A DNA stretch of 64,000 bases from Thermoanaerobaculia bacterium (lineage in GTDB: Bacteria > Acidobacteriota > Thermoanaerobaculia > Multivoradales > Multivoraceae), in contig OY761158.1 in NCBI GenBank assembly GCA_963664405.1, forward strand, positions 1,984,001-2,048,000, given 5' to 3'. Below, in pieces: positions 2,402-50,550 of the stretch (its first letter is position 1; each line of letters opens with the position of its first letter). The position numbers and the translations under genes are program-made. Under the pieces are notes generated by a model that did not search any database, had not been told where the DNA came from, and saw only the letters and a list, made by a program, of their open reading frames with translations.

Positions 2402-2794
2402 ATGTCTGACCGGCGCGTGAGCGGCCTCAGCCGCCGTGAGCGCGAGATCATGGATATCGTTTTCCGACGCGGGCGGGCCGGCGTGCTCGAGGTGTTGGAA
2501 GACATGTCATCGCCACCGAGCTATTCAGCGGTCAGAGCCACGCTCCGGATCCTCGAAGACAAAGGTCACCTGAAGCACGAGCAGCAGGGTCAGCGCTATG
2601 TGTTCCTGAGCACAGTGCCGGTCGAGCGGGCGCGGGAGTCAGCTCTCGACCGCTTGGTGACCACCTACTTCGGAGGGTCACCCGAGCACGCGATCGTCGC
2701 ACTGCTCGATGTTTCGAAGGATGAACTAGACCCGGAGCGGCTCGCTCGAATCGAGCGGCGCATCGCGGACGCGAGAAAAGGAGAGCAGCAATGA
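2402..2794 (+). CDS. BlaI/MecI/CopY family transcriptional repressor
   Basis: LSRREREIMDIV...SYSAVRATLRILEDKGHL...YFGGS winged-helix signature; overlaps the downstream M56 gene. Confidence 0.95.
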   Translation: MSDRRVSGLSRREREIMDIVFRRGRAGVLEVLEDMSSPPSYSAVRATLRILEDKGHLKHEQQGQRYVFLSTVPVERARESALDRLVTTYFGGSPEHAIVALLDVSKDELDPERLARIERRIADARKGEQQ

Positions 2795-4404
2795 TGTGGG
2801 ATTCATCGATCGGCCTCGAGCTCGTTCTAAAGGTTCTTCTGCTTCCCGTCGCGACGTGCGCAATCGCACTACTCTCCCGTCGCCGCTCGGCTTCGGTCCA
2901 GCACTTGGCCCTGGCGGGAGGGCTGACGAGCCTGGTCGCGCTACCCCTTCTTGCGATGGTGATGCCAAACTGGGCTGTCAGCACGATCCCCGGCGCCCCC
3001 GACACCCTGGCGCGCTGGTCGAGCATCGACACCGCCATTGAGGGGCTGTCCGCAACGAGTCAAGGCGGCGCGACCCTCGGCTCGGGTGGGCTCGTCGGAT
3101 CTGTCGAAGTCGCTTGGATCGTCTGGTTCCTCGGGACCTTGGTCGTATCTCTGCGGTGGCTCGCCTCACATCTGCGCGGCCGACGCATTCTGCGAGAGAC
3201 CGATGTCGAGCAGTCACCGCAATTGCTCTTCGCGCTCCGCAAGATCTCGCGTCGGCTCGGTCTCCGTCGAGCTGTCGTCCTACTTCGCGGCGGCCCACAG
3301 CAGATGTCCTTCACCGTCGGTTCCGTCAGGCCGCGAATCGTCCTGCCCTCGAGCGCACAGGAGTGGCCGATCGAGCGCCTCGAGATGGTGCTCGCCCATG
3401 AGCTCTCACACGTCCTCAGACTCGACTCCCTCTCTCAGAATGTGGCGGCTATCGCGTCGGCGCTCTACTGGTTCCATCCATTAGTGTGGTGGATGGCGCA
3501 TCGCATGCGCGCGGTCGCGGAATGTGCAGCGGATGACGCCGTCCTCGCCGGCGGAGCCTCGCCACCCGACTATGCTGAGGAGCTCGTTCTGCTGGCGAGA
3601 AAGTATCGCGCAACTGCCCCGGGGAGCCCTGCCGTGCTAGGTGGCCCCTTCGAGAAGAGGATTGAGGCGCTTCTGGCTGAGAATCGTCATCGGGTCTCGC
3701 TCGGTTGCCAGAAGTCAGCTCTGGCCCTCGGCGCAGCACTCATGGCGACAATGGCGGTGTCGGCCTGCTCGAGCACAGAGGCGTCGCCAGCCGCCGAGAG
3801 TCGCGAGACCGCGCAAACAGAAACGACATTCGAATCGCAGGCAGCCACTACGTCTGGACGCCAGATCCTCTTCGACACGGTGATCGTCGAGACCCGAGAC
3901 GAGCTCGTCAACTGGGAAGCACTCGGAAGTGCGGCGCGAGGAGAGAATCTGAGCCTCCTCTCCATCGGCAACGACTTGCAGAGCCTGGAAGCTCGCCTAC
4001 GCCAGGGCGAGAACGAGGGCAGGCTCACGATTCTCTCCTCTCCCAAGATGCTGACGGTCGACGGAGAGCGCGCCTCAGCTCAGAGCGGTCTCCAGGTCCC
4101 GGTGCAGACGAAATCGGAAGGGAGGATCTCGACCCAGTTCGTCAACGCCACTCTGCGGCTCGACATGACGCCTAGGATCGTCGAGGACGACATCGTCGAG
4201 GTCCACCTGTCGCTACAGAAGCGAATCCCGCGGCTGGAGCTGGCCGAAGGCGGCGCTAATGCGCCGATCGCCACCACCGAGGCGAGCTCGGCCTTCCGAG
4301 TCCGACTCGGAGGTACCGTCGCCATCGCCGGTATGCGCGCCTCCGGGCAGGAAGGAAGTCCGGATCTGATCGCCTTTGTAACCGTTCGGGAGATTCGTCT
4401 CTAG
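2791..4404 (+). CDS. M56 (BlaR1-like) metallopeptidase fused to a secretin-like C-terminal domain
   Basis: TM segments, LAHELSHVLRLD (HExxH) and ECAADDAVL; C-terminus ILSSPKMLTVDGERASAQSGLQVPV...LRLDMTPRI resembles the PilQ/GspD secretin domain. Confidence 0.85.
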   Translation: MMWDSSIGLELVLKVLLLPVATCAIALLSRRRSASVQHLALAGGLTSLVALPLLAMVMPNWAVSTIPGAPDTLARWSSIDTAIEGLSATSQGGATLGSGGLVGSVEVAWIVWFLGTLVVSLRWLASHLRGRRILRETDVEQSPQLLFALRKISRRLGLRRAVVLLRGGPQQMSFTVGSVRPRIVLPSSAQEWPIERLEMVLAHELSHVLRLDSLSQNVAAIASALYWFHPLVWWMAHRMRAVAECAADDAVLAGGASPPDYAEELVLLARKYRATAPGSPAVLGGPFEKRIEALLAENRHRVSLGCQKSALALGAALMATMAVSACSSTEASPAAESRETAQTETTFESQAATTSGRQILFDTVIVETRDELVNWEALGSAARGENLSLLSIGNDLQSLEARLRQGENEGRLTILSSPKMLTVDGERASAQSGLQVPVQTKSEGRISTQFVNATLRLDMTPRIVEDDIVEVHLSLQKRIPRLELAEGGANAPIATTEASSAFRVRLGGTVAIAGMRASGQEGSPDLIAFVTVREIRL

Positions 4405-4446: not shown

Positions 4447-6396
4447 CTACATCGGGGGCACGAACCAGATCGGCGAGGTGAAGGCCCGCTCCTGAATCGT
4501 CGTCTGCAGGTCCGGCCGAGGCTCGACGCCGGCCCGGATCGCGTCCCAGGTCGACCAACGGCAGACCGGATTCTCGAGCACACGCACGTAGTAGAAGGCG
4601 CGCTGCGTTGGGTCGAACTCCGGGTCGGTCCAGAGCGTTTCGAGCTCTGAAGCGCCGAGGTCCGACGAGATGCTGCAGTCGCTGAGATCGACCGCCGCAC
4701 CGTTGTCGGGGCAGCGGTGAGTCTGCGCATCGGGCTCCAGGCCGTCTGAACAGGCGACGTCGAAGATGCGGTCGTGGGCCGCACCCTCCTCGACCCACCC
4801 CTTGATGACCTGCACCCGCTGCAGCGGCGCCGAGTCCGCGTCGCGAGCGGCCCAGACCAGGAAGCGCGGCGCCCGCTCACCGTCGGCGGCGAGATCGGCC
4901 CCCATCGGGACGCCGCCTTCGTAGGCCTTTGCGACCATGTCGCGATCGGAGGCGAGACCGTCGGGGTAGTCGTAACCGGCGAAGAAGCGCACCCGCATTC
5001 GCGGCCCGGTGGTCGCGAAGGTCTCCTTGCGCCGCATCGCGTCGTAGATCGACTCGCGAGTGTTCTCCTCGGCCCAGACGACAGCGAGACCGGAGGCGCC
5101 GAAGAAGCGAAGTGCCGAGTCCGTGTACACGTTGCCCTGCGCGTCGGGCTCGTCGAGAGGCACCGAGCCGCGCCGCTGCGGCGTGCCGTCGTTGATGCCG
5201 ACCTTGGAGTGAAAATTGTCCTCCTCGGGCGTCGGTCCGGCATTGTGAGTGTCGCTCGAGCCGATGAGGCCGAAGTGAAACGGATTGAAGCCCTGTTCCT
5301 CCTCGAGCAGGAGGCCGTTCATATAAGCCTCGCGAACATAGCCGTGCTTGGGCTCACTATAGAGATCGGTGCCGATGCGGTTGGGGTAGATCTCGAAGTC
5401 GGCCCACTCGTCGTTCGGAAAAAGGAGAGGATGGACCTCGGATGTGCCCTTGACCTGAGTCACTTCCACAATGGGCTCATTTCGCATCCGCAACTCGGCG
5501 TAGGCCGCGTCGAAGGGCTCTTCGCCAACCGTCTCGAGCTGGAACATGTGCCCATTCGAGCCGTTCGAGTTGTGGGGGATTGCGAGACCCTCGATACCCT
5601 GTTCGCGAAGGCCGTCGAGCCAACGCCAGAGGTCCTCTGGGTTTCTCGAGTCGGTCGATGCAAAGGGAGCCTCCGGAACCGCGCTCGAGCGAAAGATGAC
5701 GTTGCGGTGGAGGTTCCCCCGGTCCGCTGCCGAGGTCGTGTACTCGTAGCCGATCAGGGTCGTGAAGCGGCCGGGGTCGTTGTGCTGCTCTGCAGCCTCG
5801 ATGATGTCGCGCCAGGCCGCGAGCTTGGCGGAATGGATGGCGTCGGCACCCAACGCCGCGATCTCACCGCTTCTGAGTGCCTCTATCGAACGAGTGTAGC
5901 CGCCCGTATCCAGGTCTCGTAGCTCTTTGGCGAGGGGCGTTTCGCTGAGCGGGTTCTCGGGATCGTCCAAGGCGGGGAAGGTACCGAGGTAGAGACCATG
6001 GTCGGTGACCCCCATGAAGTCGAGAGGCCCGCTCTGGAGCTGAAGCGTGTGGCCACTGGGGTGGGCGACCGCTTCACCCTTGGCGTAGCGATAAGCGTCG
6101 TCGGGAGAGGCGCGGACTTTGAACATATAGGCGTCGAAAGAGTGGCGGGTGTGGACGTGAAGATCGCCGAAGTAAGCGTTGCGCAGAGAATTCGGCCCCG
6201 ATCCCTCTGAGAGGGCAGACGGGGACGAGCTCGCACCTTCCGGCTGGCGAACTTCCGTGCTCAGAGGAACAGGCGAGGGTCAAGGCAAAGATCGCCGCAG
6301 CAACACCAGGTGCAGGGGTATTCGGCGGCAGAAGTGCTCCGCCAGGTGCAGGGGTATTCGGCAGAAGAGAAGTGCCCCGGTCTTCCGATGCTTCAT
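4447..6396 (-). CDS. DUF3604 protein (PHP-like metallohydrolase motifs), 5' end disrupted
   Basis: Frame extends upstream of 6126 to NAYFGDLHVHT; TDH, GYEY, HRN, PHN, SDTH and ERAFTSPIW motifs. ATG 6396 with RBS meets an in-frame TGA (6280-6282), and the lipobox LTLAC lies in another frame. Confidence 0.8.
6306..6362 (-). repeat. Two direct copies of the transposase-associated REP-like motif
   Basis: CCAGGTGCAGGGGTATTCGGC at 6306-6326 and 6342-6362; reverse complement GCCGAATACCCCTGCACC is 16/18 identical to the 1755 and 1651 copies. Confidence 0.7.
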
Positions 6397-7484: not shown

Positions 7485-7648
7485 CTAGACCAGCGTTTCC
7501 AAAGTTCGTGTACATAGCTCGAGGTCATTCTGTTTGCTGGCAAGGCGCACCGACGCAGGCATATTGGGAATATGTCGAGGAGACGGAACGCCGCCAGCGA
7601 GCAGAAGGGGCCGAGATCTGTGCGCGAACTTTGGAAACGCTGGTCTAG
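7485..7648 (-). mobile_element. Palindromic MITE-like element, family A, copy 1
   Basis: TIR CTAGACCAGCGTTTCCAAAGTTCG / CGAACTTTGGAAACGCTGGTCTAG; 164 bp; opposite orientation to copies 2 and 3. Confidence 0.92.
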
Positions 7649-7699
7649 TCCATACACCGAGACAGCTTGTCGCGCAGGAACCTGGGCCAGGTCTCCTCC

Positions 7700-8809
7700 T
7701 CATGCCGCGGAACCGTCGCCCGCGTCCAGTTCCTGGTAGCGCGCAATGCCGACCCGCTTGCCGATGCGCTCGCGCGCTTCGGCGGTCGACTCGTCGAGAG
7801 GGATACCACTGGCGTCGGCAACGCGGACATTGCAGCTGAAGATCGCAACGATGCCGGCTGCATCAACAAGCGCCTCGGAACCAAGGGCCACCGACAGCTG
7901 GTCACGGACTGCGTCGAGCTCTTGGTCCGATCCAACCACGACAGCATCCGCAAAGCGCGCCAGTAGCCGCCCCTGAGGAACCCCGCCGTCGCCCTCGCCT
8001 TCGCCGGTCACCAGATCCAGGTCGGTCTTCGTCTCGCTCTCGTAGCCGCTCGCACGGAGCAGCGCGCTATGCGCTGTGGTTCAGTAAAAGCAGTCGTTGA
8101 GGTACGAGACTCGCGCGGCAAGCAGCTCGATCTGGGTGCGCGTCAACTGTCGACCCGAGTCGACATCCGGGCGCGCCACGATGTCGAAGGGGAGGTAGTA
8201 GGCCTGCTCGATGCGATCGAGGTTGTGCACCTCGTCCGGCACCAGACTCAAGGCCTGGCGCACATAGGGGACGTGGCTGTGGCCCCCATAAACCTCGCGC
8301 AAGCCGTCCTCGGGAGAAACCAGGGGCACCCAGGCGACATCGCGCCGCGCGTCGGCTGGCCGACGGCGGCTGGGCTCACCGGGCGACGGCGACGGGAGTT
8401 CTGCTACCGGCAGGTCGAGCGCGCGATGGAAGGTGTCGGTCGAGACCGTGGTGATGACCACGCCGATCAGCTCCACATAGCGCTCGTCTTCCAGACCTTC
8501 GGCGCGCAGCGAGTCGAGCCAGCTCTCGGTCAGCCGGCCCGGATCGGTGACGATACGGTGCACCGCGTCGACGTAGACTTCGGCGAGGGGGCCTGAGCCC
8601 GAGTGACGCCCAGGAACGCCGTAGGGAGAGAGAGCGGCCTTTCTCTTCCGGCACAGCTCACAGGAGTGGGCCTTTCGGCATTCCGACGCGATCGCGAGGC
8701 GCTCTTGCGCGGTCCACCAGGTGCCGGCGGTACCAAGCCGTTCCCAGGCCTCATTCTGCGCTTGGAGAAGGTCCGGACGGATCGGTATCTGGTCGCCCTG
8801 GTAGTTCAA
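7700..8809 (-). CDS. AhpD/CMD-like alkylhydroperoxidase-family selenoprotein (CxxU; Sec at 8081-8083)
   Basis: ORFs 8081..8890 and 7700..8011 are in the same frame separated by one TGA: IELLAARVSYLNDCFY*TTAHSALLRASG mirrors the AhpD E..A..VS..N.CxxC...H motif; likely TTG start 8809 after GGAG. Confidence 0.85.
8045..8063 (-). promoter_or_regulatory. Putative bacterial SECIS hairpin
   Basis: GCUGCUC-CGUGC-GAGCGGC, 7-bp stem starting 18 nt after the UGA. Confidence 0.7.
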
Positions 8810-8825
8810 ACGTCCCGCGACTCCT

Positions 8826-9977
8826 TCACAGGATGAAACCTTTGGTATCCAGGCCGACGAGAGTCCGTCCGTAAACCAGCGAAGCTTCATCGAAGTTGAC
8901 CGTCTGATGTTTCGTCGCCATCGTCACGTCGCGGAAAGCCTTCTGCAGCGGACTGTCGTCGAAGACCGATCTTGCACCGGTCGCAGCAATCAGACGGTTC
9001 ACAGATCGCCGACACAACTCCACCGCATAGCAGGCCTGGAACTTCGCCTCGGCGCGAAGCGGCAGCGAGTCGCTGCCGTTCGCCGCCTGCTCGAGCAGGT
9101 CGATGGCCGAATCCAGCAGCTTCTCCGCGCACAGGACTTCGGCCTTCGCCTCGGCAAAGCGAGTGTGGAGGCCGGGGCGGTCCAGCTTCTTCCTACCGGT
9201 GTATTTGTCGGACTGGACCCCCATCAGCTCACTCGCAGCATCGATCGCGCCGCGAGCGAGCCCGAGACTCGAGGCACCGGCGTGGACCGCCAGGCCCGGC
9301 ATGATCGGGATCTTGTAGGTATTCGTAGCATGCCTACTCGCCCACTCAGAACGCGCGCCGAAAAGGACGCCGCTGTCCATCACTCGGTGCTCGGGCACGA
9401 GGACCTTGTCCGCCACCACCTCGACGCTGCCGGTGCCGCGCAGGCCGAGGGCATGCCAGTTGTCGTCGAGCTCGAGATCGGAGCGCGGCACAATCGCGTG
9501 GTAGAGCCTCGGCCTCTCCTCACTGTGGTCGACCGTGCCCATCAGAAACCAGGAGCCATGGGCGGCACCGCTGACAAAACCCCAGCGGCCGGAAAGGGTC
9601 CATCCATCTTCGCGGCGCTCGATGACCCCGGCCGGAGCCAGCGAGCCCGCCGACACCAGATCCGGATCCGCCCACACCTCGTCCTGGGCCTGCTCCGGAA
9701 AGCTGGCCATGATCCAGTCATGCCCGGTGGAGACCATCAGCACCCAGGCGGCGGAGCTGCATCCTCTGGCACACTCGCTCACCATCTCGAGCATCACCCG
9801 CAAATCGCCCTCATCCCCACCGGCGCGGCGCGGAACCAGCGCGCGAAAAAGGCCCGCCTCGCGCATCGCCGCGACACTCTCATCGGCCAGGGATCGCGCA
9901 AGGTCCGAGGCTTCGGCGTGGGCGCTGAGGGTCTCGAGCAGTGTCGGACTGACAGAAGACGCGGCCGATACGTTCAT
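8826..9977 (-). CDS. Flavin-dependent monooxygenase of acyl-CoA dehydrogenase fold (HsaA/C2-like)
   Basis: LFRALVPRRAGG, LSGRWGFVSGAAH, DNWHALGLRGTGS and SPLQKAFRD motifs; start MNVSAA at 9977 after GGAG. Confidence 0.88.
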   Translation of the reverse strand: MNVSAASSVSPTLLETLSAHAEASDLARSLADESVAAMREAGLFRALVPRRAGGDEGDLRVMLEMVSECARGCSSAAWVLMVSTGHDWIMASFPEQAQDEVWADPDLVSAGSLAPAGVIERREDGWTLSGRWGFVSGAAHGSWFLMGTVDHSEERPRLYHAIVPRSDLELDDNWHALGLRGTGSVEVVADKVLVPEHRVMDSGVLFGARSEWASRHATNTYKIPIMPGLAVHAGASSLGLARGAIDAASELMGVQSDKYTGRKKLDRPGLHTRFAEAKAEVLCAEKLLDSAIDLLEQAANGSDSLPLRAEAKFQACYAVELCRRSVNRLIAATGARSVFDDSPLQKAFRDVTMATKHQTVNFDEASLVYGRTLVGLDTKGFIL

Positions 9978-10024
9978 TTCATGCTCCTGAATTGACCGGG
10001 GCCCTTCAATTTTCATGTCCTTGA

Positions 10025-10053
10025 TTGAATCCCAACCGGCCGACCGGTAGGAT
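10025..10053 (+). promoter_or_regulatory. sigma70 promoter, probably leaderless, with a palindromic operator in the spacer
   Basis: TTGAAT 10025-10030, 17 bp, TAGGAT 10048-10053, ATG at 10060 with no SD; imperfect palindrome CAACCGGCCGACCGGTAG at 10033-10050. Confidence 0.55.
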
Positions 10054-10059
10054 AACAGC

Positions 10060-11334
10060 ATGCTGACCGGAGCGACCACCACCATCACGGTCATCTCGTT
10101 GCTTCTCACCTGGGGAGGCGCCTTGCAGGAGCAGAGCGAACTGCGACCTGCGGTCATCCATCCGAAAGAGATGGTGGAGCGCCGCTTCGCCCCTAGCGCT
10201 CCGGAAGTAGGTGAGGCGATGCCGGACCTGCCGGTATACGACTCAGAGGGAGAAGAGCTGAGGTTTCGCGACCTGGTGCGAGGGCAGCACACGGTCGTGA
10301 TCCTCGGCTGTCTCACCTGACCCCCCTTCCTCTCTCTGGTCTCCCGGGTGGAGACCGTCGCGCGGGACTACACTCCGAAGGGAGTGCGCTTCTACTACCT
10401 GTACAAAGCGTTGGCGCATCCGGAGTACCACGGGTACATCACCCCTTTCACCCTGGAAGAGCGCCTGATGCACGCCAAGGAGGCGGAGCGCCGCCTGGGC
10501 TCCCGTATCCCCTGGATCGTCGACGCAATGACCAACGACCTGAAACACGCTTTGGGCTACGCACCCAACAGTGAGTTCGTCGTTGATCCCGAGGGCAAAG
10601 TGGTGCGTCGACGAGCCTGGAGCGACCCCGACGCCCTGCGAGCGGATCTCGAAGAGCTCGTCGGCGCGGTCGAAAGACCGACCCGCGTCGCGGATCTCGA
10701 CATGCCGACCCAACCGCCCCCGGCCCCCACTGTAGCCACGGGTGTAGTGCCAGGAGTCGAGGTCGCGGGGCACATGCGAGCGCTGCGCCTAACGCCCGAG
10801 CTCGAGGGCAACAAATACCCCTTCTACGTAAAGCTCCGCGCCGAGGCCGACCAGAGCTTCCTGGCCGAGGCCGAAGGTCAGATCTACCTCGGCTTCCATC
10901 TCGACCCCCTCTACGAGATGCACTGGAACAACCTCGCTCCACCTCTCGAGCTCGAGATCACGGCACCGGAAGGAGTGCGGGTGACGCCGACCAAGCTCGC
11001 GGCGACGACGCCGAAGGAAGAGGCGGACGCCGATCCTCGCGAGTTCCTCGTCCGCATCGAGGCCGACCCGGGCCAGCGAGATCCTCTGAAGCTCTCGGTT
11101 CTGTACTACGCCTGCGACAACGCCAACACTTTCTGCGTTCCGGTGCGGCAGAGCTACGCCGTGCACCTCACCGCCGACAGCGACGGTGGCAGCCCCTTCA
11201 GCCGCACCGCGATGCCGGCAGGAGAGGGCGTCCTCGGCGACATGGACACAAATGGAGATGGCACCATCGACCGCGATGAGCTGGAGGCGAAAGAAAGGGA
11301 GCTCGACGTTTTGCTCGAGCAGGCGCCCGACTAG
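10060..11334 (+). CDS. Secreted deiodinase-like thioredoxin-fold selenoprotein (Sec at 10318-10320) with C-terminal DsbD-N-like region and EF-hand
   Basis: ORFs 10060..10320 and 10348..11334 are in frame with one TGA: VVILGCLT*PPF (deiodinase GSCTUPPF type), then YLYKALAHP, ER and WIVDAMTN...GYAPNS; C-terminal YYACDNANTFCVP and DTNGDGTIDRDE. Confidence 0.88.
10338..10356 (+). promoter_or_regulatory. Putative bacterial SECIS hairpin
   Basis: GGUCUCC-CGGGU-GGAGACC, perfect 7-bp stem starting 18 nt after the UGA. Confidence 0.75.
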
Positions 11335-11345
11335 TACCAACCTCC

Positions 11346-12590
11346 ATGGACTTCAATGACTCCCCCACCGAGGCCGCCTTCCGAAACGAGGTCCGGGCCT
11401 GGCTCCAGGCCAATGCCGAGCCCAGGACCGGTCCCCCCGAGCACATCTTCACCCTTCGAGGCGACGAGGCCGAGTACGTCCGTCGCGCCAAAGTCTGGCA
11501 GGCGAAGAAGCACGACGCCGGTTACGCCGCCATCCACTGGCCGAAGGAGGACGGCGGTGGCGGCGGCACGCCGATGCAGGCCCTGATCTTCGGTGAGGAG
11601 GAATCCAGGTACCGAGTGCCACAGGGAGCCTTCACGGTCGGCATGGGGATGTGTGGACCGGTACTGAGGCTCTACGCGGACAAGCAGACCAAGGAACGCC
11701 TGCTTCCACCCCTGGTGCGGGGAGAGGACCTCTGGTGCCAACTCTTTTCAGAGCCTACCGCGGGTTCAGACCTCGCCGGTTTGCGAACCCGCGCCGAGCG
11801 CGACGGCGACTCGTGGGTAGTGAACGGCCAGAAGGTCTGGACCTCGATGGCGAACCACGCCAGCTACGGCATCCTGGTCGCGCGTCACGACCCCAGCCTG
11901 CTCAAGCATAAGGGCCTCACTTTCTTCTGGCTCGATATGAAAAGCCCCGGCATAGAGGTCAAACCGATCAAGCAGATCTCGGGCGCCGCGGGTTTCAACG
12001 AGGTCTTCTTCACCAACGTTCGCATTCCCGACTCCCAGCGCCTCGGTAAAGTCGGCGAGGGCTGGCAGGTCTCGCTGGCGACGCTGATGAACGAGCGAGT
12101 GGCGGTGTCCAGCCCTGGACCGCCTGACTTCGACGATATCTTCGCGTTGGCGCGAGATCTCGGCCTCGTCAACGGACCCGCCGGCACGGCGGTGCGATCC
12201 CGCCTCGCCGACTGGTACGTCGAGGCGCAAGGATTGCGCTTGACCGGTGCCCGCACCCTGACGCGACTCAGCCGCGGAGAGAATCCTGGGCCTGAGTCGT
12301 CGATCGAGAAAGTCGTCGCCTCCACCAAGCAGCAGGAGATTGCGTCGTTCGGCACCGACTTGCTCGAATATGCCGGCGTGCTCCTGAACCAGGAGACACT
12401 GCCGGGCGAGGGCTTGTTCCAAACCGGATATCTCTCGTCTCCCGGCCGTCGCATCGCCGGAGGAAGCACCGAGATCTTGCGCAACGTGATCGCCGAACGC
12501 GTCCTGGGCTTGCCGGGAGACATCCGCGTCGACCGCGATCTCCCTTTCAATGAGATCCCGACGGGGAACAGTCCCCCACCCTCGCGATGA
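11346..12590 (+). CDS. Acyl-CoA dehydrogenase
   Basis: WCQLFSEPTAGSDLA, VNGQKVWTS, FNEVFF and IAGGSTEILRNVIAERVLGLP. Confidence 0.95.
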   Translation: MDFNDSPTEAAFRNEVRAWLQANAEPRTGPPEHIFTLRGDEAEYVRRAKVWQAKKHDAGYAAIHWPKEDGGGGGTPMQALIFGEEESRYRVPQGAFTVGMGMCGPVLRLYADKQTKERLLPPLVRGEDLWCQLFSEPTAGSDLAGLRTRAERDGDSWVVNGQKVWTSMANHASYGILVARHDPSLLKHKGLTFFWLDMKSPGIEVKPIKQISGAAGFNEVFFTNVRIPDSQRLGKVGEGWQVSLATLMNERVAVSSPGPPDFDDIFALARDLGLVNGPAGTAVRSRLADWYVEAQGLRLTGARTLTRLSRGENPGPESSIEKVVASTKQQEIASFGTDLLEYAGVLLNQETLPGEGLFQTGYLSSPGRRIAGGSTEILRNVIAERVLGLPGDIRVDRDLPFNEIPTGNSPPPSR

Positions 12591-13216
12591 CCGACCACAA
12601 CGCCGACACTGCGGGCAGTGCCTCCGCCGGGCTTCCGAGTACGACGCGGACAGAGGAGATCTACCAGGCCGCCGTCGCCCTCTTCCTCGAGCGCGGCTAC
12701 GACGCAACGCCCCTGTCCGTCATCGCAGCGAAGCTCGGGCTCACCAAGGCCGGTCTCTACCACCACTTCGAGAGCAAAGAGGACCTGCTCTTCCACATCC
12801 ATCGCCACCTGATGACAGAGCGTCTGTTGCCAGTGATCGAGGCAGCCGAACGAGAGTCGGATCCGGAGCTCCGCCTGCGACAATACATCTGCGACTTCAC
12901 CGCGCTGATGGCCTCTGACCCCGCTATCCGCCTATTGATCGAAGAATCGAAGCGGCTCTCGCCCGAGCATCTCGATGCGATCCGTGCGGTTTGGAGACGG
13001 GGCTACCAGTTGATGCGAAGCTCGATCGAGGAGCTCAAACAATCGGGCCGCTGCAAGCAGACACTAGACCCGACCTACGCCGCCTTCGCGGCGATCGGGA
13101 TGTGTACCTGGACCCTCTACTGGTTCGATCACGACCGCCCAGACACGATTCACGAGATCTCGGAGGCTTTCTCGAGCATCTTTCTGAGCGGTGTTCTCGA
13201 AGATGAGGCCGGCTAG
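12587..13216 (+). CDS. TetR/AcrR family regulator
   Basis: AAVALFLERGYDAT...IAAKLGLTKAGLYHHFESKEDLL. Confidence 0.95.
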   Translation: MTDHNADTAGSASAGLPSTTRTEEIYQAAVALFLERGYDATPLSVIAAKLGLTKAGLYHHFESKEDLLFHIHRHLMTERLLPVIEAAERESDPELRLRQYICDFTALMASDPAIRLLIEESKRLSPEHLDAIRAVWRRGYQLMRSSIEELKQSGRCKQTLDPTYAAFAAIGMCTWTLYWFDHDRPDTIHEISEAFSSIFLSGVLEDEAG

Positions 13217-13227
13217 GGGCACAATCG

Positions 13228-13800
13228 TCACTCTTCGGCAGAGCTCAGAAACGTCTTCAGCCAGCCTCTCGCCCGCTGCCAGTCGCGCTGGGCGGTACGC
13301 AGAGAGATAGACAGAGCCTCCGCCGTCTCTTTCTCGGAGTAGCCTGCAAACAAGCGGCACTCCACGACCTGGACCAGGCGAGGATCGTAGGACGCGAGCT
13401 TCTCCAGCGCTTCGTCAACAGCGAGGAAGCCCTCCGCCTGTGCGGCGACGGCGACCCTGCCTTCGTCGAGCTCGAGATCTGGCTTGCCGCCACCACGCTT
13501 GTGCCGCGTCTTGCGTTTGGCGTAGTCCACCAGAATCTGACGCATAGCGCGGGCGGCGATGGCGAAGAAGTGGGAGCGGTCCGCGAAGGTGGCCGCCCTC
13601 TGTGCCACCAGCTTGATGTAGGCCTCGTGAACGAGCCCGGTGGTGTCGAGCGTGTGCCCTGGGCGCAATCGCCGCAGCTGCCCGCGGGCGATGCGCCGTA
13701 GGTCTTCGTAGATCAGTGGCACCAGCCGATCGAAGGCGCCCTCCTCACCGCGGACATGGGCTTGGAGGATCCCGGTCAGGTCTTCGCTGGACGATGACAT
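13228..13800 (-). CDS. ECF sigma factor (TIGR02999 type)
   Basis: LIYEDLRRIARGQLRR...TLDTTGLVHEAYIKL...AARAMRQILVDYA...RTAQRDWQRARGWL. Confidence 0.93.
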   Translation of the reverse strand: MSSSSEDLTGILQAHVRGEEGAFDRLVPLIYEDLRRIARGQLRRLRPGHTLDTTGLVHEAYIKLVAQRAATFADRSHFFAIAARAMRQILVDYAKRKTRHKRGGGKPDLELDEGRVAVAAQAEGFLAVDEALEKLASYDPRLVQVVECRLFAGYSEKETAEALSISLRTAQRDWQRARGWLKTFLSSAEE

Positions 13801-14564
13801 CAGCCTGGTTCTCCAGCGGTTTCAGTGGGCACTATAGCCGGTGCCAGAGGGCTCTCGAAGCTCTTCAAGAGTGCATCGACCTCACCCAGCGGTCGGCCCA
13901 CGCCACCCTGGCCTTCTCGGCTGTAGTGCCCGAGCCGCTCCGCTCTAGCCAGCTCGATGGGGGTCAGCCAGCTTGATCCCGCGGCAGCACACTCTGGCGC
14001 CGTGACAAAGCGGTTGTGTCGATTGTGAGGGGTGATGTGACCCATGATCTCGCGCCGGCAGCGATGGCGGTCGCTCACATGCCCCAGACCAAGCACGTGC
14101 CCGAGCTCGTGGGCCAAGTTCTGGGCCCGGCTGCCACACCACAGCTGCTCGCCACTCGAGTCGACCGCTCGGTTGTAGAGGGTGATCGTGCTCACCGCGA
14201 ACTCGCCGCAGGTCGTGCTTCCACTCGAGCCGTCGGAGAGCTCGATACGGATGGTCCGGAAACCTCCGGCGCCGTGGATGAACTGTGGAAAGTCCTGGCC
14301 ATAGCCGCTGCAGCTCCGCCACTGGCGTATCGCCTTCTCCACCACCTCGAAGGCAAGCTCGTCGCCGTAGTCGAGTCCGATCGATTCTCCGAGCCGGGTA
14401 AGGGAGTAAGGCGGCCGGCATGGGTCGTCGCCCGCGAAGCTCGACGCGCTGACCAGCTGTCCTGCCAGCAGAAGAGCAGGCCACCTCCAAGGTCGCGGCG
14501 GCGAACCGAGCGGTGCGACGCCTGGCGCTTTGTCCCGAGTGCGGTTGCGCGAGAATTGAGTCAT
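13800..14564 (-). CDS. Secreted metzincin zinc metalloprotease
   Basis: HELGHVLGLGH (HExxHxxGxxH) followed by Met-turn EIMG; signal-like N-terminus; stop abuts the ECF start. Confidence 0.8.
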   Translation of the reverse strand: MTQFSRNRTRDKAPGVAPLGSPPRPWRWPALLLAGQLVSASSFAGDDPCRPPYSLTRLGESIGLDYGDELAFEVVEKAIRQWRSCSGYGQDFPQFIHGAGGFRTIRIELSDGSSGSTTCGEFAVSTITLYNRAVDSSGEQLWCGSRAQNLAHELGHVLGLGHVSDRHRCRREIMGHITPHNRHNRFVTAPECAAAGSSWLTPIELARAERLGHYSREGQGGVGRPLGEVDALLKSFESPLAPAIVPTETAGEPG

Positions 14565-14762
14565 AGCGAGCCTCCTTGGTGAGGGTCCGACGGCTTAATC
14601 GAGGTCGTTATCGCCGCCAACCTCTGCAATACGACGAAGGGGTGGAAGACCCGCCATCCGAAGCGCGAGGCCTCGCTCGCCAGGCTGCAGCCATCTGGCA
14701 GACACTGCAGCGGTGCTAGCATGAGTTGCTCTGTCTGAGGCTGAGGTGAATGGGGGCCACTC

Positions 14763-17755
14763 ATGGCGGCTCGAAAAAAGCGCACCAACCCCACCCTTCG
14801 CAGGTGGTCGGAGGTCGACGCTCTCCTCCGTCAAGCCTTGGAGCGGCCCACGGAGGAGCGGCCTGAATTCCTGGCTGAGGCGTGTCGGGACGACACCGAG
14901 CTGCACGCAGCGGTCGGGGCCCTACTCGCCGCATCCGAGGAGGACACGAGCGGCCTCGCGACCGGAGCGGGCGTCGACGGTCCGTTATTGCAGGAGTTAC
15001 TCGAAGAGCTCGTGCCGGAAGCGTCCCCTCCCGGCTTCGGCGAAGGGAAAGCGAAGGCGATGGCCCTAGATTCGGGCACTCGTCTTGGCAACTACGAGGT
15101 TGTCTCCAGCCTCGGCGCCGGAGGAATGGGAGAGGTCTATCGTGCCCGCGACGAGAAGCTGGGGCGCGAGGTGGCGATCAAGCTCCTTCGCCAGGAAGTC
15201 TCGAACGACCCTGAGCGTCTTGCGCGATTCACTCGCGAGGCGCGAGTTCTCGCTTCTCTGAATCACCCCAACATCGCAACCCTGCACGGATTTGAGACCG
15301 CACAGGACACCCCGTTCCTTGTCATGGAGCTGGTCGAAGGAGAGACGCTGGCGGAGAGGATCAAGCGTGGAGCGATCCCGGTCGAGGAGGCGCTCGCACT
15401 CTTTCTGCAAATCGCCGATGGCTTGGAGGCTGCCCACGATAAGGGCGTCATCCATCGCGATCTCAAGCCGGCGAACATCAAAGTGACCGACGAGGGTGCT
15501 GCGAAGATTCTCGATTTCGGTCTGGCCAAGGCGATGACGGCAGAGTCGACGATGGGAGACCCGAACTCCTCGGAATCGCCGACGCTGACTGCGGCGGCCA
15601 CGAAGCCTGGGCAGATCCTCGGGACCACCGCCTACATGTCGCCAGAGCAGGCAAAGGGGGGCGCCGTCGACAAGCGGGCTGATGTATGGGCGTTCGGCGC
15701 GTGCCTCTACGAAGCCCTGACCGGCGAACGCGCTTTCCAGGGAGACAGTGCACAAGACGTTCTCGGCTCGGTGCTGAAGCTCGACCCGGCATGGGACGCT
15801 CTGCCGTCGGCCACTCCCACTCCGCTGCGGCGCCTCCTCCGCCGCTGCCTCGAGAAGAACCCCAACGACCGCCTGCGCGACATCGGTGATGCTCGCCTTG
15901 AGCTGTGTGAAGCCTTCGCGACTCCTGCGAGCGATGAGCCGACGACACGCGAGGTCAGCAAGGAGAGGCGCAGCCTCAGTCTGGCCCGCGCCTCCGTCGT
16001 CACCGGCGCGGTGACCGCCGCCATAGCGGTGATCGCCGGGCTCGCATTCTGGACCTCGAGGCCTGATCCTATTCCGCCCGAGCGCCTCGTGGTCCGCTCT
16101 GTGCTGAGCGCCGCTCCCAGCGCGTCGGTGACAGTTTCCCCTTTCGGGCGCGATCTGGCGGTGGGCCCCGACGGCCGGGTGGTCGTGTACCAGAGCGAAG
16201 GCTCTCTCTATGCTCGCCCTACAGACAGCCTCGTCGGATCCCAGCTGGCAGGGACGGAGGGCGCGTCGACTCCCTTCTTTTCGCCCGACGGGGCCTGGGT
16301 CGGCTTCGCAGCCGGCGGCAGTCTCAAGAAGGTCTCCCTTCTCGGGGGACCGACGGTGAGGCTGGCCGATCTAGCCGGCGGCATTCTCACCGGCGCAAGC
16401 TGGGGCGCTGACGACACCATCATCCTCGGCTTTTCCGACGGCCTCTATCGAGTGTCGGCAGAAGGGGGCAGGCCGGAGCTGCTTCTAGCGCCAGATCCGG
16501 AGAGAAGAGAGATATATCGCAGCCCTGAGCTATTACCCGGCGGCCAGACCGTACTTTTCACTCTCCGCCCGAGCACGAGCCCCGAACAAGAGCAGATCAT
16601 GGCCCTGTCTCTCTCTACCAGGAAGCAGAAAGTCCTGCTCTACGGTGGAGGCACTGCCCGGTACGTGCCCACGGGACACTTGGTCTACGGGCTCAACGGT
16701 GCGCTGCTAGCCGTGGCCTTCGATGCCGAGAGTTTGGAGGTCAGGGGAAATCCGGTTTCCGTCCTGGAAGGCGTCTCCAGCAAGGCCGCTGGTCGTACCG
16801 TAAGCTTCGACTTCTCGCAGAACGGGTCCTTGGCGTACGTCACGTCAGGCGGATGGTCACGAGCGACCTTGGCCTTGGTGGGGCGGGACGGACAGGAGGA
16901 GGTCCTCTCTACCCCCCCCCTCGGCGCTACCAGTATCCTCGCATCTCTCCGGACGGGCAACGGATAGCAGTCTCCTCTGCTGATGAAAACCAGGATGTGT
17001 GGATCTGGGACCTCGGTCGGGAGACGCTGGATCAGTTGACCCGCGATCCTGGACGAGACCTGACTCCGGTCTGGACTCCTGATAGTCGCGAAGTGGTGTT
17101 CAGCTCGAACCGTGGCGGGAGCTTCGACCTTTACCAGAGGGCGGCGGACGGCACGGGCCCTGTGAAGACTCTGACTGAGAGCAACGAGCCGCTATCTCCC
17201 TCGTCTTTTTCCCCTGATGGCAAGCTTCTCGTCTACCGTGTAGGCATGTTGGCAGGGTTCGATCTAGGGGTACTATCGTTCGAGGGCGAGGGGGCACAAG
17301 AGCCGCTTCTCGTAGCGGAGATCGATGAGTGGAACGGGGAGATCTCACCCGACGGTCGTTTCCTCGCCTACCAATCGGACGAATCAGGCGAGGACGAGAT
17401 CTATGTGAGGCCATTCCCAGAAGTCGAGAGCGGTCGCTTCCCGATCTCAGCTGGCGGCGGCACAGAACCGCTTTGGTCGCCAGACGGGAGCGAGATCTTC
17501 TATCGTGTCGACGATCGGGTGATGGCAGCGCCAATCCAGACCGACCTCGCGTTCGAAGCGGGGAACCCACAGGAGCTCTTGAGGGGGGTCCATGCCGGTG
17601 CCTCCCAAGGAGGCCGCAGTTACGACATCCACCCGGACGGTGAACGTTTTCTCACCATCCTCCCGGCGGAGACGAACGAGCAAGGATTGGGGATTCAGGT
17701 CATTCTGGTCGAGAACTGGTTCGAGGAGCTGAAACGCCTGGTGCCCGTCGACTGA
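14763..17755 (+). CDS. Ser/Thr protein kinase with TM and TolB-like beta-propeller (frameshift in C9 run 16912-16920)
   Basis: LGAGGMGEVY, VAIK, IHRDLKPANI, DFG and YMSPE; PD40-like SPDG repeats continue in ORF 16853..17755. Confidence 0.9.
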
Positions 17756-17995: not shown

Positions 17996-18161
17996 CTAGA
18001 CCAGCGTTTCCAAAGTTCGCGCACATATCTCGGCCCCTTCTGTCCGCTGACGGCGTTTCGCCTCCTCGACATATTGCCCAATATGCCTGCGTCGGCGCGC
18101 CTGGCCAGCGAACAGAATGACCTCGAGCTATTGCACACGAACTTTGGAAACGCTGGTCTAG
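17996..18161 (+). mobile_element. Palindromic MITE-like element, family A, copy 2
   Basis: Same 24-bp TIRs, 166 bp; its right CTAG contains the stop codon of the CusA-like gene. Confidence 0.92.
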
Positions 18162-21100
18162 CTATCCGAGGCGACTCGCCGATCACCCCGCTCCCTCCTC
18201 CGGCTCCGGGCGCCGAAGCGAGCGTAGAGCGCGGGGATCACGAAGAGGTTGAGCAGCGTCGATGTGACCAGCCCCCCCAGGATCACCAGTGCCATCGGGT
18301 GCTCGATCTCGTAACCCGGCCGGTTGCCACCGACGACGATCGGCAGCAAGGCCAGCATGGTGGTCAGGGCGGTCATCAAGATCGGCGCAAGGCGCTCCTC
18401 CGCGCCGCGGAGTGCCAGCTCTCGGCCGAAGGGCAGGCCCTCCTCCAGCTGTAGATGCCGGTAATGGCTGATCAGCATGATGCCATTGCGGCCCGCGATC
18501 CCGAGAACGGTCACGAATCCCACGATCGCTCCCAGAGAGACGACACCGCCGCCGAGGGCGACCGCAACCACACCGCCAACCAGGGCGAAAGGCAGGCTCA
18601 GAAAGACGAGAAAAGTGAGCTGTGCGGACCGGAAGTCGGTGTGCAGGACGAGAAAGATTCCCAGAATCGAAAGCGCGGACAGAGAGAGCAGCCGATTTCT
18701 TGCCTTCTGTTGCTCGATGTACTCGCCCAGAAACTCGGGGTGGTAACCCTGCTCGAAGGCAACCGTTCCCACCCGATCTTCGATCTCGCGCGCCACGCTG
18801 CCGAGATCACGGCCGGCGACGTTGCAGATGACATCGATGCGTCGCGACGCATTCTCCCGCTCGATGGTGTTTGGCGTGGGCGCGATGAAAACGTCGGCCA
18901 CCTCGCCGAGAGGGACCTGCGCGCCGGACGGTGTGTCGATCTTCATCTCGCGGATTCTGGTGACGTCGTTACGCACCCCCGGGACACCCCAGACCACCAC
19001 GTCGAAAGTCATCTGGTCCTGGTAGATCTCCCCCACTTTGGTGCCCTTGACCAGGGTCGTGGTGGCCCGCCTTAGGTGCCCGGAGCTGAGCCCGAACTGC
19101 TCCGCGCTGCTCTCACGCAGCCGGATCACCAGCTGCGGCACCATCACCTGCTGCTCTACGTGCAGATCCACGACCCCCGGAACCTGCCCCATCTCCGCGG
19201 CGACCGCCTCGGCGTGGGCGTAGAGCTGTTCGAGGTCGGGACCGAAGATCCGGACCACGATCGACCCGCTGGCTCCGGTCAGAACCTCCTTGATCCTCTC
19301 CTTGAGATAGGTGAGCACATCCCGGTACAGACCGGGGTAACCGTTGACCACCTCCTGGATCTTCGCCACCGAGGCGTCATAGTCGACGTCCGGATCGAGA
19401 CTGATCCAGAGCTCGGTGAAGTTCGGCCCGACGACCTCGTCGGCCACTTCAGCACGACCGATGTGGGCGCCGAAGTTGCGGACCCCCGGGATCGCTCGAA
19501 GCTCCCGGCTCACTCGCTCGGTGATCCGGCGCATCGCAGCCAGCGAGGTCCCCGGCTTCTCGACCCAGTGCATCAGAAAATCGTACTCCTTGAACCTCGG
19601 CATGAACTCCTCGCCAAGCAGAGGCAGGCCGGCGACGGTAAGCCCCAGGACGACGGCCAGCCCTGCGAGCACCGTCTTCGGCCGGCGCATCAAGGCCGGC
19701 AGCGCCCGCCGATAGAGTCTCTTCAGGCCTCTCACCAGACGCGGCTCCGCATGCTTCTGGGCTGCACGGGGAAGCAACAGCAGAGACAGCGCCGGAGTGA
19801 CCGTCAGGGCGACCAGCAGCGAAGCGAGGATCGCGAGCACATAGGCTGAAGCCAGAGGCCGAAAGAACGATCCGGAGAGCCCGTCCAGAAAGAAGACCGG
19901 CAGGAACACCAGCACCACGATCACGCTGCCATAGACCACCGCACTACGAACCTCGAGGGAAGCTTCGAGGACGACGCGAAACACCGGTCGAGGCTCGCTC
20001 GCGGCTCGATTCAGCCGCAGGCGCCGAATGATGTTCTCGACGTCGATGATGGCATCGTCGACCACCTCTCCCAGCGCGATGATCAACCCGGCGAGGACCA
20101 TCGTGTTGATGGTCCAACCGAGCCAGTCGAGAATCAGCACCGCGGTGAGCAGCGACAGGGGGATCGCCAACACGCTGATGAGCCCCGTCCTCCACTCCTC
20201 GAGGAAGGCGAACAACACCACCGCCACCAAGAGACATCCCGCGAGGAGGGCAAAGCGCAGGTTGGACAACGACATTTCGATGAAGGTCGCGGGCCGGAAG
20301 ATCGTGGAGTCGATCGCAATGTCCGCCAGCCCCGGACCAAGTGCATCGAGCGCGGCCTCGACTCCGCGGGTCACCTCGAAGGTGTTGCCCCACGGCTGCT
20401 TCTCGACGATCAGCAACAGCCCGGGCCCGTCGTTGATCACCGCATCCCCGATCGGCTGCGCGAAACCCTCTACGACATCGGCGACGTCCCCCAGCTCGAG
20501 CGCCGCTCCGTCGCGAAAATCGATCGGCAGGCGGGCGAGATCCTCCTCGGTCTCGACCGCTTGCCGGTGCAGTATCGCGAGGCGCTGATTCGGCGTATCG
20601 ACAAAGCCACCCGCACCGACGAAGAGAGCGGAGCGCAGAGCCTCGACCAGGCCCTCGAGAGTCAGGCTGTGAGCCCTCAGACGCTCCGGATCCACCAGTG
20701 CCTGCAGCTGGCGGTCCTTCTGTCCCCAGATCGCCACGTTGGCGACGCCGGGAACCGCCATCATGCGCGGCCGCATCGTCCATACCGCAAGGGTGGTCAG
20801 CTCCATCTGCGAGAACTTCTCGGAGGTCACCCCGACCTTCAGTACGCGACTCGTTGCCGAAAGGGGCGGCACCATCACCGGCGGACTCGCGACTTCGGGT
20901 AGTCGGCCGGTCAAGGTCGTGAGCCTTTCCTGAACGACTTGGCGCGCCTGCCAAAGATCCGTGCCCTGCTCGAAAATCAGTACCACCGAAGACAGACCGA
21001 GGACCGATTTCGAGCGCACCGTCTCGAGGAATGAAATGCCGTTGACGACGCTCTCGATCGGCACACTGACCAGGCTCTCCACCTCTTCGGTCGAAAGGCC

Positions 21101-21262
21101 GGGAGCCTCGGTCTGAATCTCAACCAGGGTCGGCGCGAACTCGGGGAAGACGTCGAAGGGCATCGTGCGCGAAGCCCTGACACCCACCACGATCAGCACC
21201 GCCGCCAGGACCACCACCACCCCACGGTGGCGCAGAGAGATGGAAACGAGCCAATTCATCAT
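18158..21262 (-). CDS. CusA/CzcA-family RND efflux permease
   Basis: [34 protein letters not shown] and [12 protein letters not shown]; about 1030 aa. Confidence 0.93.
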
Positions 21263-21283
21263 GGTGAGCGGGGACCTTCGGCG

Positions 21284-22483: not shown

Positions 22484-22485
22484 TT

Positions 22486-25859: not shown

Positions 25860-25873
25860 ATGTACCGCCTCCC

Positions 25874-50504: not shown

Positions 50505-50550
50505 TGAGCTTCTCCCTTCGAGTATGGAGGCGTTCTAGACAACGCCTAAA

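Follow-up and report, generated by a model that had tools for sequence, protein, structure and literature searches.

Two neighbouring genes with putative in-frame selenocysteine codons, each conserved on its own, in a Thermoanaerobaculia genome

The window analysed here is a stretch of 64,000 nucleotides (nt) of contig OY761158.1 from a Thermoanaerobaculia bacterium (assembly GCA_963664405.1, positions 1,984,001 to 2,048,000 of the forward strand); coordinates refer to this window unless the locus of a relative is named. Between positions 7700 and 13,216, five protein-coding genes are arranged around a short divergent intergenic region. Two of them, encoding an AhpD-related and a deiodinase-like protein, are each interrupted by a single in-frame TGA that very probably encodes selenocysteine (Sec). 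We consider it highly probable that these are two separate, individually conserved selenoprotein genes that lie back to back with ordinary catabolic genes by happenstance. The genes of the region and the two codons are listed below.

7700..8809, minus strand: AhpD-related putative selenoprotein gene, 369 amino acids (aa) plus stop; probable TTG start at 8809, AGGAG at 8825..8821
8081..8083, minus strand: in-frame TGA of the AhpD-related gene, putative Sec codon, the U of CFYU; context SYLNDCFY-U-TTAHSALL
8826..9977, minus strand: flavin monooxygenase, oxygenase subunit of the two-component type with acyl-CoA dehydrogenase (ACAD) fold; ATG at 9977, stop at 8828..8826
9978..10059, between the strands: divergent intergenic region of 82 bp; Shine-Dalgarno-like AGGAG at 9988..9984 (minus strand) and AGGA at 10049..10052 (plus strand)
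10060..11334, plus strand: deiodinase-like putative selenoprotein gene, 424 aa plus stop; ATG at 10060, stop at 11332..11334
10318..10320, plus strand: in-frame TGA of the deiodinase-like gene, putative Sec codon, the U of GCLTUPPF; context VVILGCLT-U-PPFLSLVS
11346..12590, plus strand: ACAD gene, similar to PimC-large but below its cut-off
12587..13216, plus strand: TetR-family regulator gene

This gene layout, the intergenic region and the single in-frame TGA codons had been described in an earlier reading of the same DNA (hereafter the original prediction), and all are present where it placed them. An all-six-frame scan of the 64 kb for TGA codons with coding-like codon-position GC on both sides returned ten places. 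Only two of these, 8083..8081 and 10318..10320, fall in Cys-containing redox motifs. The GC content at the first, second and third codon positions (GC1/GC2/GC3) follows, in all four half-genes around the two TGAs, the pattern of the other genes in the window. Genome-wide reassignment of TGA was considered and rejected because TGA is the stop codon in 24 of the 54 heuristic gene calls, among them the monooxygenase gene and the AhpD-related gene at its own end.

The homologues of the AhpD-related protein are cut at the same place. Among the best 120 listed, 117 end exactly at C-x-x, mostly CFY, one shifts frame just before the motif, and two (P0139 and P0164) are full-length, with CFYC at the site and an alignment that runs through the C-terminal 126 aa. 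At two genomic loci of relatives, L045 and L079, a TGA is found at the same site of the AhpD-related gene and an identity of about 40% continues past it. The full protein matches the NCBIfam model NF041238 (AhpD_rel_CFYUT, 'alkylhydroperoxidase-related (seleno)protein') with 438.2 bits against a cut-off of 175, over profile positions 1-356 of 357, and its motif reads C-F-Y-U-T, as this model requires. The Pfam CMD match (PF02627; aa 247-305 of P0001) crosses the TGA and scores 31 bits, with a gathering score of 23. The models for AhpD proper (TIGR00777, 16.4 against 191.95) and for peroxidase-related proteins (TIGR01926, 58 against 81.8) are both below their cut-offs. In a sequence profile search of the PDB, AhpD-type chains matched two separate stretches of the protein. 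It appears to be made of tandem CMD/AhpD-like halves, the first with C-x-x-C (aa 77/80 of P0001), which is invariant in the family, and the second with C-F-Y-U-T-T-A-H. The active-site signature of AhpD is C-x-x-C-x-x-x-H, and the second half appears to carry this signature with Sec replacing the second Cys. The TGA at 8083..8081 is, judged from these alignments, very probably a Sec codon at the redox-active position. No signal peptide was seen in this protein, and a tblastn search with it against plasmids gave no match.

For the deiodinase-like protein, 260 relatives were confirmed among contigs of one genome per species, and 80 genomic loci were examined. By a hand count of record titles, these comprise 28 loci from Acidobacteriota, 28 from Planctomycetota, 20 from (Gamma)proteobacteria and four others. 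TGA occupies the site in 77 of the 80 loci and TCA in one (L025); two loci (L052 and L065) could not be aligned there. The family is widely mis-called at the protein level: 116 of the best 120 listed hits start just after the TGA, 92 of them by a sequence anchor and 24 as judged from their printed N-termini. These fragments bear database names such as 'EF-hand domain-containing protein', 'Ca2+-binding EF-hand superfamily protein' or 'hypothetical protein'. The listed hits that span the site have Cys in three cases (P0008, P0065 and P0097; GCLTCP.F) and Ser in one. The copies of both genes in the window keep every family-invariant residue downstream of the TGA. The TGA at 10318..10320 is thereby also very probably a Sec codon at the redox-active position.

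The original prediction had proposed Sec at the redox-active position of both proteins and had named homologues without Cys or Sec there as evidence to the contrary. TGA or Cys is conserved at both sites in the relatives, and this part of the proposal stands. It had also anticipated that gene calling would split both genes. Indeed, the database copies are fragments: P0123, with 242 aa that start with MNYQGDQ and end with NDCFY, for the AhpD-related protein, and P0003, with 328 aa that start with METVARDY, for the deiodinase-like protein.

Each TGA is followed by a short hairpin, a putative bacterial Sec insertion sequence (SECIS).

10337..10357, plus strand: hairpin of the deiodinase-like gene; GGUCUCC at 10338..10344, loop CGGGU at 10345..10349, GGAGACC at 10350..10356
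8045..8063, minus strand: hairpin of the AhpD-related gene; stem 8063..8057 with 8051..8045, loop CGUGC at 8056..8052

The core of the AhpD-related hairpin is CUGCUC-CGUGC-GAGCGG (8062..8046). In both hairpins the loop comprises 5 nt at nt 28-32 counted from the U of the UGA and has a G at its second position. The calculated energies are -12.5 kcal/mol for the deiodinase-like and -11.6 kcal/mol for the AhpD-related hairpin. To describe the former across the family, 78 sequences of 72 nt from the TGA were aligned, with the hairpin at nt 21-39. As their closing pair, 58 sequences have CG, 12 GC, two AU, one UA and two UG, and in three the pair is broken; 15 double changes occur at this pair. Across the stem, 88.5% of the cells are paired, compared with 34-57% when the 3' partner is slid, and the covariation score was attained by none of 500 column shuffles. 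The loop G29 is invariant. Among the columns at third codon positions, 33 and 36 are invariant and 24 and 27 are at least 90% conserved across phyla. Bacterial SECIS elements have been described as stem-loops soon after the UGA with a small apical loop that contains a G (PMC1088965). This is what the deiodinase-like hairpin looks like, and the AhpD-related hairpin has the same geometry in the window. Its covariation makes the former a clear instance of a SECIS from which a model could be built.

The genes for Sec decoding are found next to the deiodinase-like gene in part of the family. A tRNA-Sec lies beside it in 13 of the 80 loci (L024, L027, L028, L032, L037, L043, L045, L046, L047, L048, L053, L074 and L079), and SelB-like and SelA-like open reading frames (ORFs) are found nearby in 13 and 12 loci, respectively. 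In L079 and L032, both SelB and SelA score above the cut-offs of TIGR00475 and TIGR00474. L045 and L079 share the order AhpD-related gene (with TGA), selC, selB, selA and, divergently, the deiodinase-like gene (with TGA), the two selenoprotein genes lying within about 5 kb of each other. The two families thus co-occur in other genomes as well, there in the company of the Sec genes instead of catabolic ones. Two further observations were made at these loci. L047 contains two copies of the tRNA-Sec/selB/selA set within 14.9 kb (L047:169-3600 and L047:8697-12179), either a duplication or an assembly artefact. A class-V aminotransferase, with the fold of cysteine desulfurases and selenocysteine lyases, is encoded in L024 (L024:5284-6780, minus strand), and the same family is found in eight loci of the Gammaproteobacteria type; it sits 2-3 kb upstream of the deiodinase-like gene in genomes with selABC downstream.

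The deiodinase-like protein is composed of four parts.

aa 6-19: N-terminal hydrophobic helix, signal-peptide-like
aa ~48-201: thioredoxin fold, carrying C84-L-T-U87
10672..11199, plus strand, aa ~205-380: DsbD-N-like beta-sandwich with the invariant C352/C359 in the motif YYAC-x6-C-VPV
aa ~394-409: EF-hand loop (D-T-N-G-D-G-T-I-D-R-D-E) in a helical tail

An AlphaFold2 model built with 60 aligned relatives reaches a mean predicted local distance difference test score (pLDDT) of 88.6 and a predicted template modelling score (pTM) of 0.82. In a Foldseek search with the whole model, the C-terminal domains of Mycobacterium tuberculosis DipZ rank first (E 2e-10), followed by extracytoplasmic reductases of the ResA/TlpA type (template modelling score, TM, ~0.8), mouse Dio2 and Dio3 (TM 0.75 and 0.69, 20% identity) and peroxiredoxins. 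The Pfam matches of the thioredoxin fold (T4_deiodinase, Redoxin and AhpC-TSA) all span the second TGA. T86, U87, P88, F90, Y115 and H120 are invariant or nearly so in the family. No NCBIfam model reaches its cut-off with this protein; NF038285 (deiodinase_rel) gives 59.1 bits where 250 are needed.

In the full-length model the beta-sandwich spans aa ~239-372; modelled as a separate domain, it reaches a pLDDT of 92.1. DsbD_N (PF11412) is the sole Pfam family that recurs in it, with matches in 33 of 56 relatives at E <= 0.1, three of which reach the gathering score of 25 bits (profile positions ~15-115 of 119). In a Foldseek search with the sandwich, nDsbD structures (1l6p, 1jpe and 3pfu) are found at ranks 3, 7 and 14; these matches are weak (E ~5e-3, TM ~0.5). 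A PDB sequence profile search with the sandwich alone returned chance matches only (E ~0.17, glutaminyl cyclase). The C352/C359 pair is invariant across 60 sequences. The EF-hand loop of the window protein is visible by eye and scores 22.1 bits with EF-hand_5, where the gathering score is 25.9; clear EF-hand pairs are found in about 28 of 60 relatives. Inspected by eye, the N-termini of the window protein and of most of the 72 relatives with printed N-termini are signal-peptide-like. The protein is thus probably exported and would act outside the cytoplasm. The C-terminal tails vary within the family: some relatives carry EF-hand pairs, several Planctomycetota copies a different domain of about 100 aa, and others no tail at all (examples of such variants are L012, L013, L016, L056, L067-L069 and L076). 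In one 684-aa Cys form, P0065, an esterase/lipase domain has been added by fusion. Clustering of the genes in the neighborhood of the 77 TGA loci returned selA and selB, their antisense ORFs and unrelated genes specific to single lineages.

Taken together, these data point to two selenoproteins of the thiol redox type, and their mode of action may be outlined as follows. SelB and tRNA-Sec would decode both UGAs, steered by the short downstream hairpin. The AhpD-related protein, presumably cytoplasmic, would cycle between the selenol/thiol state and a C267-U270 selenenyl-sulfide and thereby reduce a peroxide or an oxidised partner protein. The deiodinase-like protein may serve as a periplasmic selenol/thiol redox relay in which U87 attacks the substrate and C84 resolves the intermediate as a Se-S bond. 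The C352/C359 pair would trade electrons with the CxxU centre, in the way DsbD-gamma does with DsbD-alpha, and the EF-hand may couple the relay to Ca2+. Candidate substrates are a peroxide, a protein disulfide or sulfenate, and a halogenated phenolic. A general role in thiol-disulfide or peroxide chemistry is most likely for this protein. We infer that Sec is inserted in this organism, that the deiodinase-like protein is exported, in which direction electrons flow, what the substrates may be and that the neighbouring genes are co-transcribed with the two selenoprotein genes.

A number of results weigh against this picture. Concerning the decoding of the TGAs, no selA, selB, selD or tRNA-Sec is found within the 64-kb window, which is devoid of any tRNA, and Sec decoding in this organism is accordingly presumed. 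All 13 loci with tRNA-Sec are of the Gammaproteobacteria type, to which the linkage with selABC is confined. Ser occupies the site in the Acidobacteriota locus L025 (TCA, L025:10154-10156) and in protein P0007, the gene being otherwise intact; hence the residue is not strictly indispensable, or these copies are inactive or erroneous. TCA and TGA differ by a single base, and the Ser codon may represent either a genuine Sec-to-Ser variant or an error in the sequence.

Other such results concern the hairpins. They stand out only mildly from shuffled sequences, being equalled by 7 of 200 shuffles for the deiodinase-like and 5 of 200 for the AhpD-related gene, and longer folds, over the 60-92 nt that follow each TGA, do not exceed shuffles in stability (z +0.53, -1.31, -0.56 and -0.04). 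Double changes occur in just one pair of the deiodinase-like stem, the other pairs being invariant or changed on one side, and the majority stem contains a C-A mismatch, or a bulged A according to RNAalifold. The AhpD-related hairpin is less secure because it was compared in three sequences, with stems of 6, 5 and 4 pairs, and two of these hairpins are weak, those of L045 and L079 being matched by 56 and 68 of 200 shuffles. Rfam returned no SECIS family at gathering scores in the whole window, and at E <= 10 in 7600..10600 only two chance snoRNA matches and again no SECIS family. In the deiodinase-like protein of the window, the T4_deiodinase match (PF00837) remains below the gathering score, with 25 instead of 27 bits. 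The sandwich of the window protein itself has no DsbD_N match at E <= 0.1, and the nDsbD structures matched by Foldseek stand among mostly generic immunoglobulin (Ig)-like folds. Finally, no redox partner (CcdA/DsbD-beta, thioredoxin reductase or cytochrome) recurs near the 77 TGA loci.

A bolder interpretation starts from the resemblance to animal deiodinases. The deiodinase-like protein would then be an exported, Se-dependent reductive dehalogenase with a built-in electron shuttle, acting on natural halogenated phenolics such as bromo- and iodophenols or halotyrosines. Sec would abstract the halogen, C84 would resolve the Se-X/Se-S intermediate, and the DsbD-N-like domain would re-reduce the site. 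By PDB sequence profile, the best solved relative is indeed mouse Dio3 (E 3.1e-6), which shares G-x-x-T-U-P-P-F, Y...A-H-P and D-T-M-x-N, with Tyr197 and His202 aligned by our own count. At E <= 0.01, T4_deiodinase matches 51 of the 60 family members, the best with 1.4e-9. Thr, Tyr and His, which are part of the proton relay proposed for Dio, do not vary within the family, and many loci stem from marine metagenome-assembled genomes, judged by record titles. The residues of the Dio proton relay and the Dio-specific loop-D have been described, including Ser at -3, Glu200 and Trp207 (PMC11592359). At the position of Dio3 Glu200, however, the family has an invariant Leu, and loop-D is shortened and gapped; therefore, neither the proton relay nor the substrate lid is intact. 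At -3, where deiodinases have Ser, the family has the Cys of a thioredoxin-type CxxU. Moreover, Redoxin and AhpC-TSA match 55 and 53 of the 60 members, as many as T4_deiodinase does, and reductases of the ResA/TlpA type fit at least as well by structure. No gene related to dehalogenation recurs near the family loci. In the study that named the family, a general redox role was anticipated (PMC1088965), and Dictyostelium didA, the one tested non-animal deiodinase homologue that was found, is not the dechlorinase of differentiation-inducing factor (DIF) (PMC3205185). What speaks for dehalogenation is family resemblance, and we regard this interpretation as unlikely. An argument from the Dictyostelium homologue as DIF dechlorinase had been considered and was dropped, as it is contradicted by the same study, in which the DIF dechlorinase is glutathione S-transferase-like and the knock-out of the deiodinase homologue is normal (PMC3205185).

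If dehalogenation proved true, the protein would be a bacterial counterpart, and possibly an evolutionary forerunner, of the thyroid-hormone deiodinases of animals. It and the AhpD-related protein would then be among the core selenoproteins that account for the retention of selABC in aerobic Acidobacteriota, Planctomycetota and sediment Gammaproteobacteria. In a more cautious version, it would supply, as a soluble protein with Sec, the 'gamma-alpha' half of a reducing pathway of the DsbD type in the periplasm.

The five genes might also belong together. The original prediction had seen in them a co-regulated, Se-dependent module that possibly couples reductive dehalogenation or thiol redox chemistry to aromatic hydroxylation and CoA-ester oxidation. 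Spelled out, with the TetR in control, a halogenated aromatic would be dehalogenated by the deiodinase-like protein and hydroxylated by the monooxygenase, a CoA ester would be oxidised by the ACAD, and thiol redox chemistry would be provided by the AhpD-like protein. The spacing is tight around the single 82-bp divergent region: 16 nt separate the monooxygenase gene from the AhpD-related gene on the minus strand, 11 nt the deiodinase-like gene from the ACAD gene on the plus strand, and the ACAD and TetR genes overlap by 4 nt. There is no terminator-like site between the genes on the coding strand. Such spacing suggests two divergent operons in this genome, within which the genes may be co-transcribed. 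The intergenic region also contains short inverted repeats that may act as an operator, and the proximity of both selenoprotein genes in L045 and L079 would agree with a common unit. In these two loci, however, selC-selB-selA and not catabolic genes lie between them. Homologues of the monooxygenase, ACAD and TetR are found near the deiodinase-like gene in none of the 80 loci (tblastn, E <= 1e-5), and the AhpD-related gene accompanies it in just two; of the 78 loci whose site was mapped, 47 extend at least 3 kb to either side of it. The position of the AhpD-related gene directly 3' of the HsaA-like monooxygenase gene is seen in the window only, as opposed to its place beside selC in L045 and L079, the two loci compared. 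TetR and ACAD genes commonly occur as pairs by themselves. Furthermore, the signal-peptide-like N-terminus, which is seen on none of the other four proteins, would probably place the deiodinase-like protein away from them. Given the lack of synteny in the 80 loci and the probable export, the module is unsupported and, in our view, very unlikely; the search for a conserved gene neighborhood around the deiodinase-like gene returned none, an outcome that the original prediction itself had named as speaking against it.

The regulatory details of that proposal fared no better. A promoter had been placed in 9978..10059; a scan of 7500..13400 found no sigma-70-like site, and the intergenic inverted repeats, whose operator role is putative, have arms of 6 nt only (AATTGA-N10-TCAATT at 9990..10011 and TTCAAT-N13-ATTGAA at 10005..10029). 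The operator assumed at 10033..10050 is a short near-palindrome, CCGACCGGT / ACCGGTAGG. As to the catabolic genes themselves, the monooxygenase matches Pfam Acyl-CoA_dh_2 (95.6 bits) and is below the NCBIfam equivalog cut-offs for HsaA (228 against 450 bits) and HpaH (209 against 650). By its sequence, it is HsaA/HpaH-like only in the sense of a member of the wider group of monooxygenases with ACAD fold.

That the TGAs are real stops in a genome without Sec machinery, leaving truncated remnants or pairs of short ORFs with perhaps some low-level near-cognate read-through, is scarcely credible: the 64-kb window without sel genes or tRNA-Sec, the missing Rfam SECIS match and the frequent use of TGA as a stop in the window would fit, but both downstream segments retain coding-type codon-position GC and all family-invariant residues, both keep a hairpin at the family position, which would mean two independent survivals in one genome, and neither an 86-aa piece that ends before the catalytic residue nor a thioredoxin fold without its first strand and helix would be functional.

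Outside this region, several other features of the window are worth recording. An enoyl-CoA hydratase gene at 24988..25877 (minus strand) is split over two overlapping ORFs in different frames, of which 25401..25877 covers ECH_1 profile positions 3-70 and 24988..25458 positions 113-248; a frameshift, a pseudogene or a sequencing error would explain this. Three DUF3604 and three pyrroloquinoline quinone (PQQ)-dependent dehydrogenase paralogues are encoded at 4447..6126 (minus strand), 43812..45479 (minus strand), 48687..52275 (minus strand) and 55141..59601 (plus strand). Two of these pairs are directly adjacent PQQ-dehydrogenase and DUF3604 tandems, and a di-haem cytochrome c and a Rieske-domain protein are encoded nearby. 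We know of no joint function of such a pair. The stretch 13228..16967 encodes an extracytoplasmic function (ECF) sigma factor of the PF07638 type (173.7 bits) and, behind it in the same direction, a 254-aa protein that has a HELGH-type motif and no Pfam match; a 734-aa Ser/Thr protein kinase is encoded divergently from this pair. At 2402..4404 (plus strand), a BlaI-type repressor gene precedes that of a BlaR1-type M56 peptidase with a C-terminal secretin domain, an unusual fusion. Two complete resistance-nodulation-division (RND) efflux operons, each with pump, membrane-fusion protein and outer-membrane factor, are located within 17 kb (18158..23814, minus strand, and 28967..34664, plus strand).

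Both selenoprotein families were identified by computation in papers of 2005 and 2008, and reviews as recent as 2026 include them (PMC1088965, PMC2398784, PMC9312934, PMC13188914). The original prediction had called the two genes hidden, which holds for plain gene callers and does not hold otherwise, as the AhpD-related family has the curated model NF041238 and publication on both families goes back to 2005 (PMC1088965). No experimental characterisation of the function of bacterial deiodinase-like proteins was found in the accessible text of the literature. An incomplete search of the same kind found no description of the fused DsbD-N-like domain with export signal and EF-hand tail in this family, nor of the near-universal Sec across three phyla and the placement beside selABC. 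These features are offered as a lead and not as a claim of absence from print. The practical value lies in a correction of the annotation: both TGA-cut genes are to be read through as selenoprotein genes. Beyond this, the deiodinase-like family is widespread and nearly always has Sec, and the combination of a DsbD-N-like domain with an export signal provides a concrete functional idea. Nothing is changed in kind with respect to existing knowledge.

Compared with known systems, the AhpD-related protein is the more familiar of the two. According to a table in a 2026 review (PMC13188914), the NF041238 family corresponds to 'hypothetical protein 1' of the 2005 Sargasso Sea study (PMC1088965). The window protein is matched over its full length and has the same C-F-Y-U-T and CxxU; Sec forms dominate in this family and Cys forms are rare. 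There is no difference in the protein itself, which is an ordinary member. With AhpD of M. tuberculosis and the peroxidase-related CMD proteins (6k40, 2oyo) it shares the CMD fold and C-x-x-[C/U]-x-x-x-H. Unlike AhpD, it is about twice as long, has an additional N-terminal half with a CxxC of its own, and carries putative Sec in place of the second Cys.

Bacterial deiodinase-like selenoproteins were reported with four sequences from the Sargasso Sea (PMC1088965) and later with 22 Sec and 21 Cys forms from the Global Ocean Sampling data (PMC2398784); a general redox role was presumed for them (PMC1088965). The family in the window agrees with the published ones in its relation to PF00837, the thioredoxin fold, the Sec position in T-U-P-P-F, the SECIS-like hairpin with a G in the loop and the existence of Cys homologues. 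It adds the DsbD-N-like sandwich with its Cys pair, the signal-peptide-like N-terminus and the variable tails. Its motif is CxxU, whereas UxxC is listed for the representative in two reviews (including PMC13188914), a comparison made by description. The reviews name MFL2763324.1 and MBO99264.1 as deiodinase-like representatives.

Animal deiodinases (mouse Dio3, 4tr3, and Dio2, 9h48) are the best solved relatives and share the Sec position in T-U-P-P-F at the beta1-alpha1 turn, the Tyr/His ('AHP') edge of the Dio insertion and D-T-M-x-N. In contrast to these membrane-anchored dimers, the window protein is predicted to be soluble and exported. It differs further in having Cys at -3, Leu for Glu200, a short loop-D, and the extra beta-sandwich and EF-hand. 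At the RNA level, the bacterial hairpin lies in frame within the gene, whereas animal deiodinases have their SECIS in the 3' untranslated region.

The relays DsbD, DipZ and ScsB (nDsbD 1l6p and 1jpe; DipZ 2hyx) likewise combine an extracytoplasmic thioredoxin fold with an Ig-like beta-sandwich. The Cys pair of DsbD lies in the motif [YF]-x-[AG]-C-x(5-6)-C-x-P, and the Cys pair of the window family is found in this very context. In contrast to these relays, the window protein has no membrane domain (beta/CcdA), nor does one recur nearby; the thioredoxin fold precedes the sandwich, and the redox centre is a CxxU with putative Sec.

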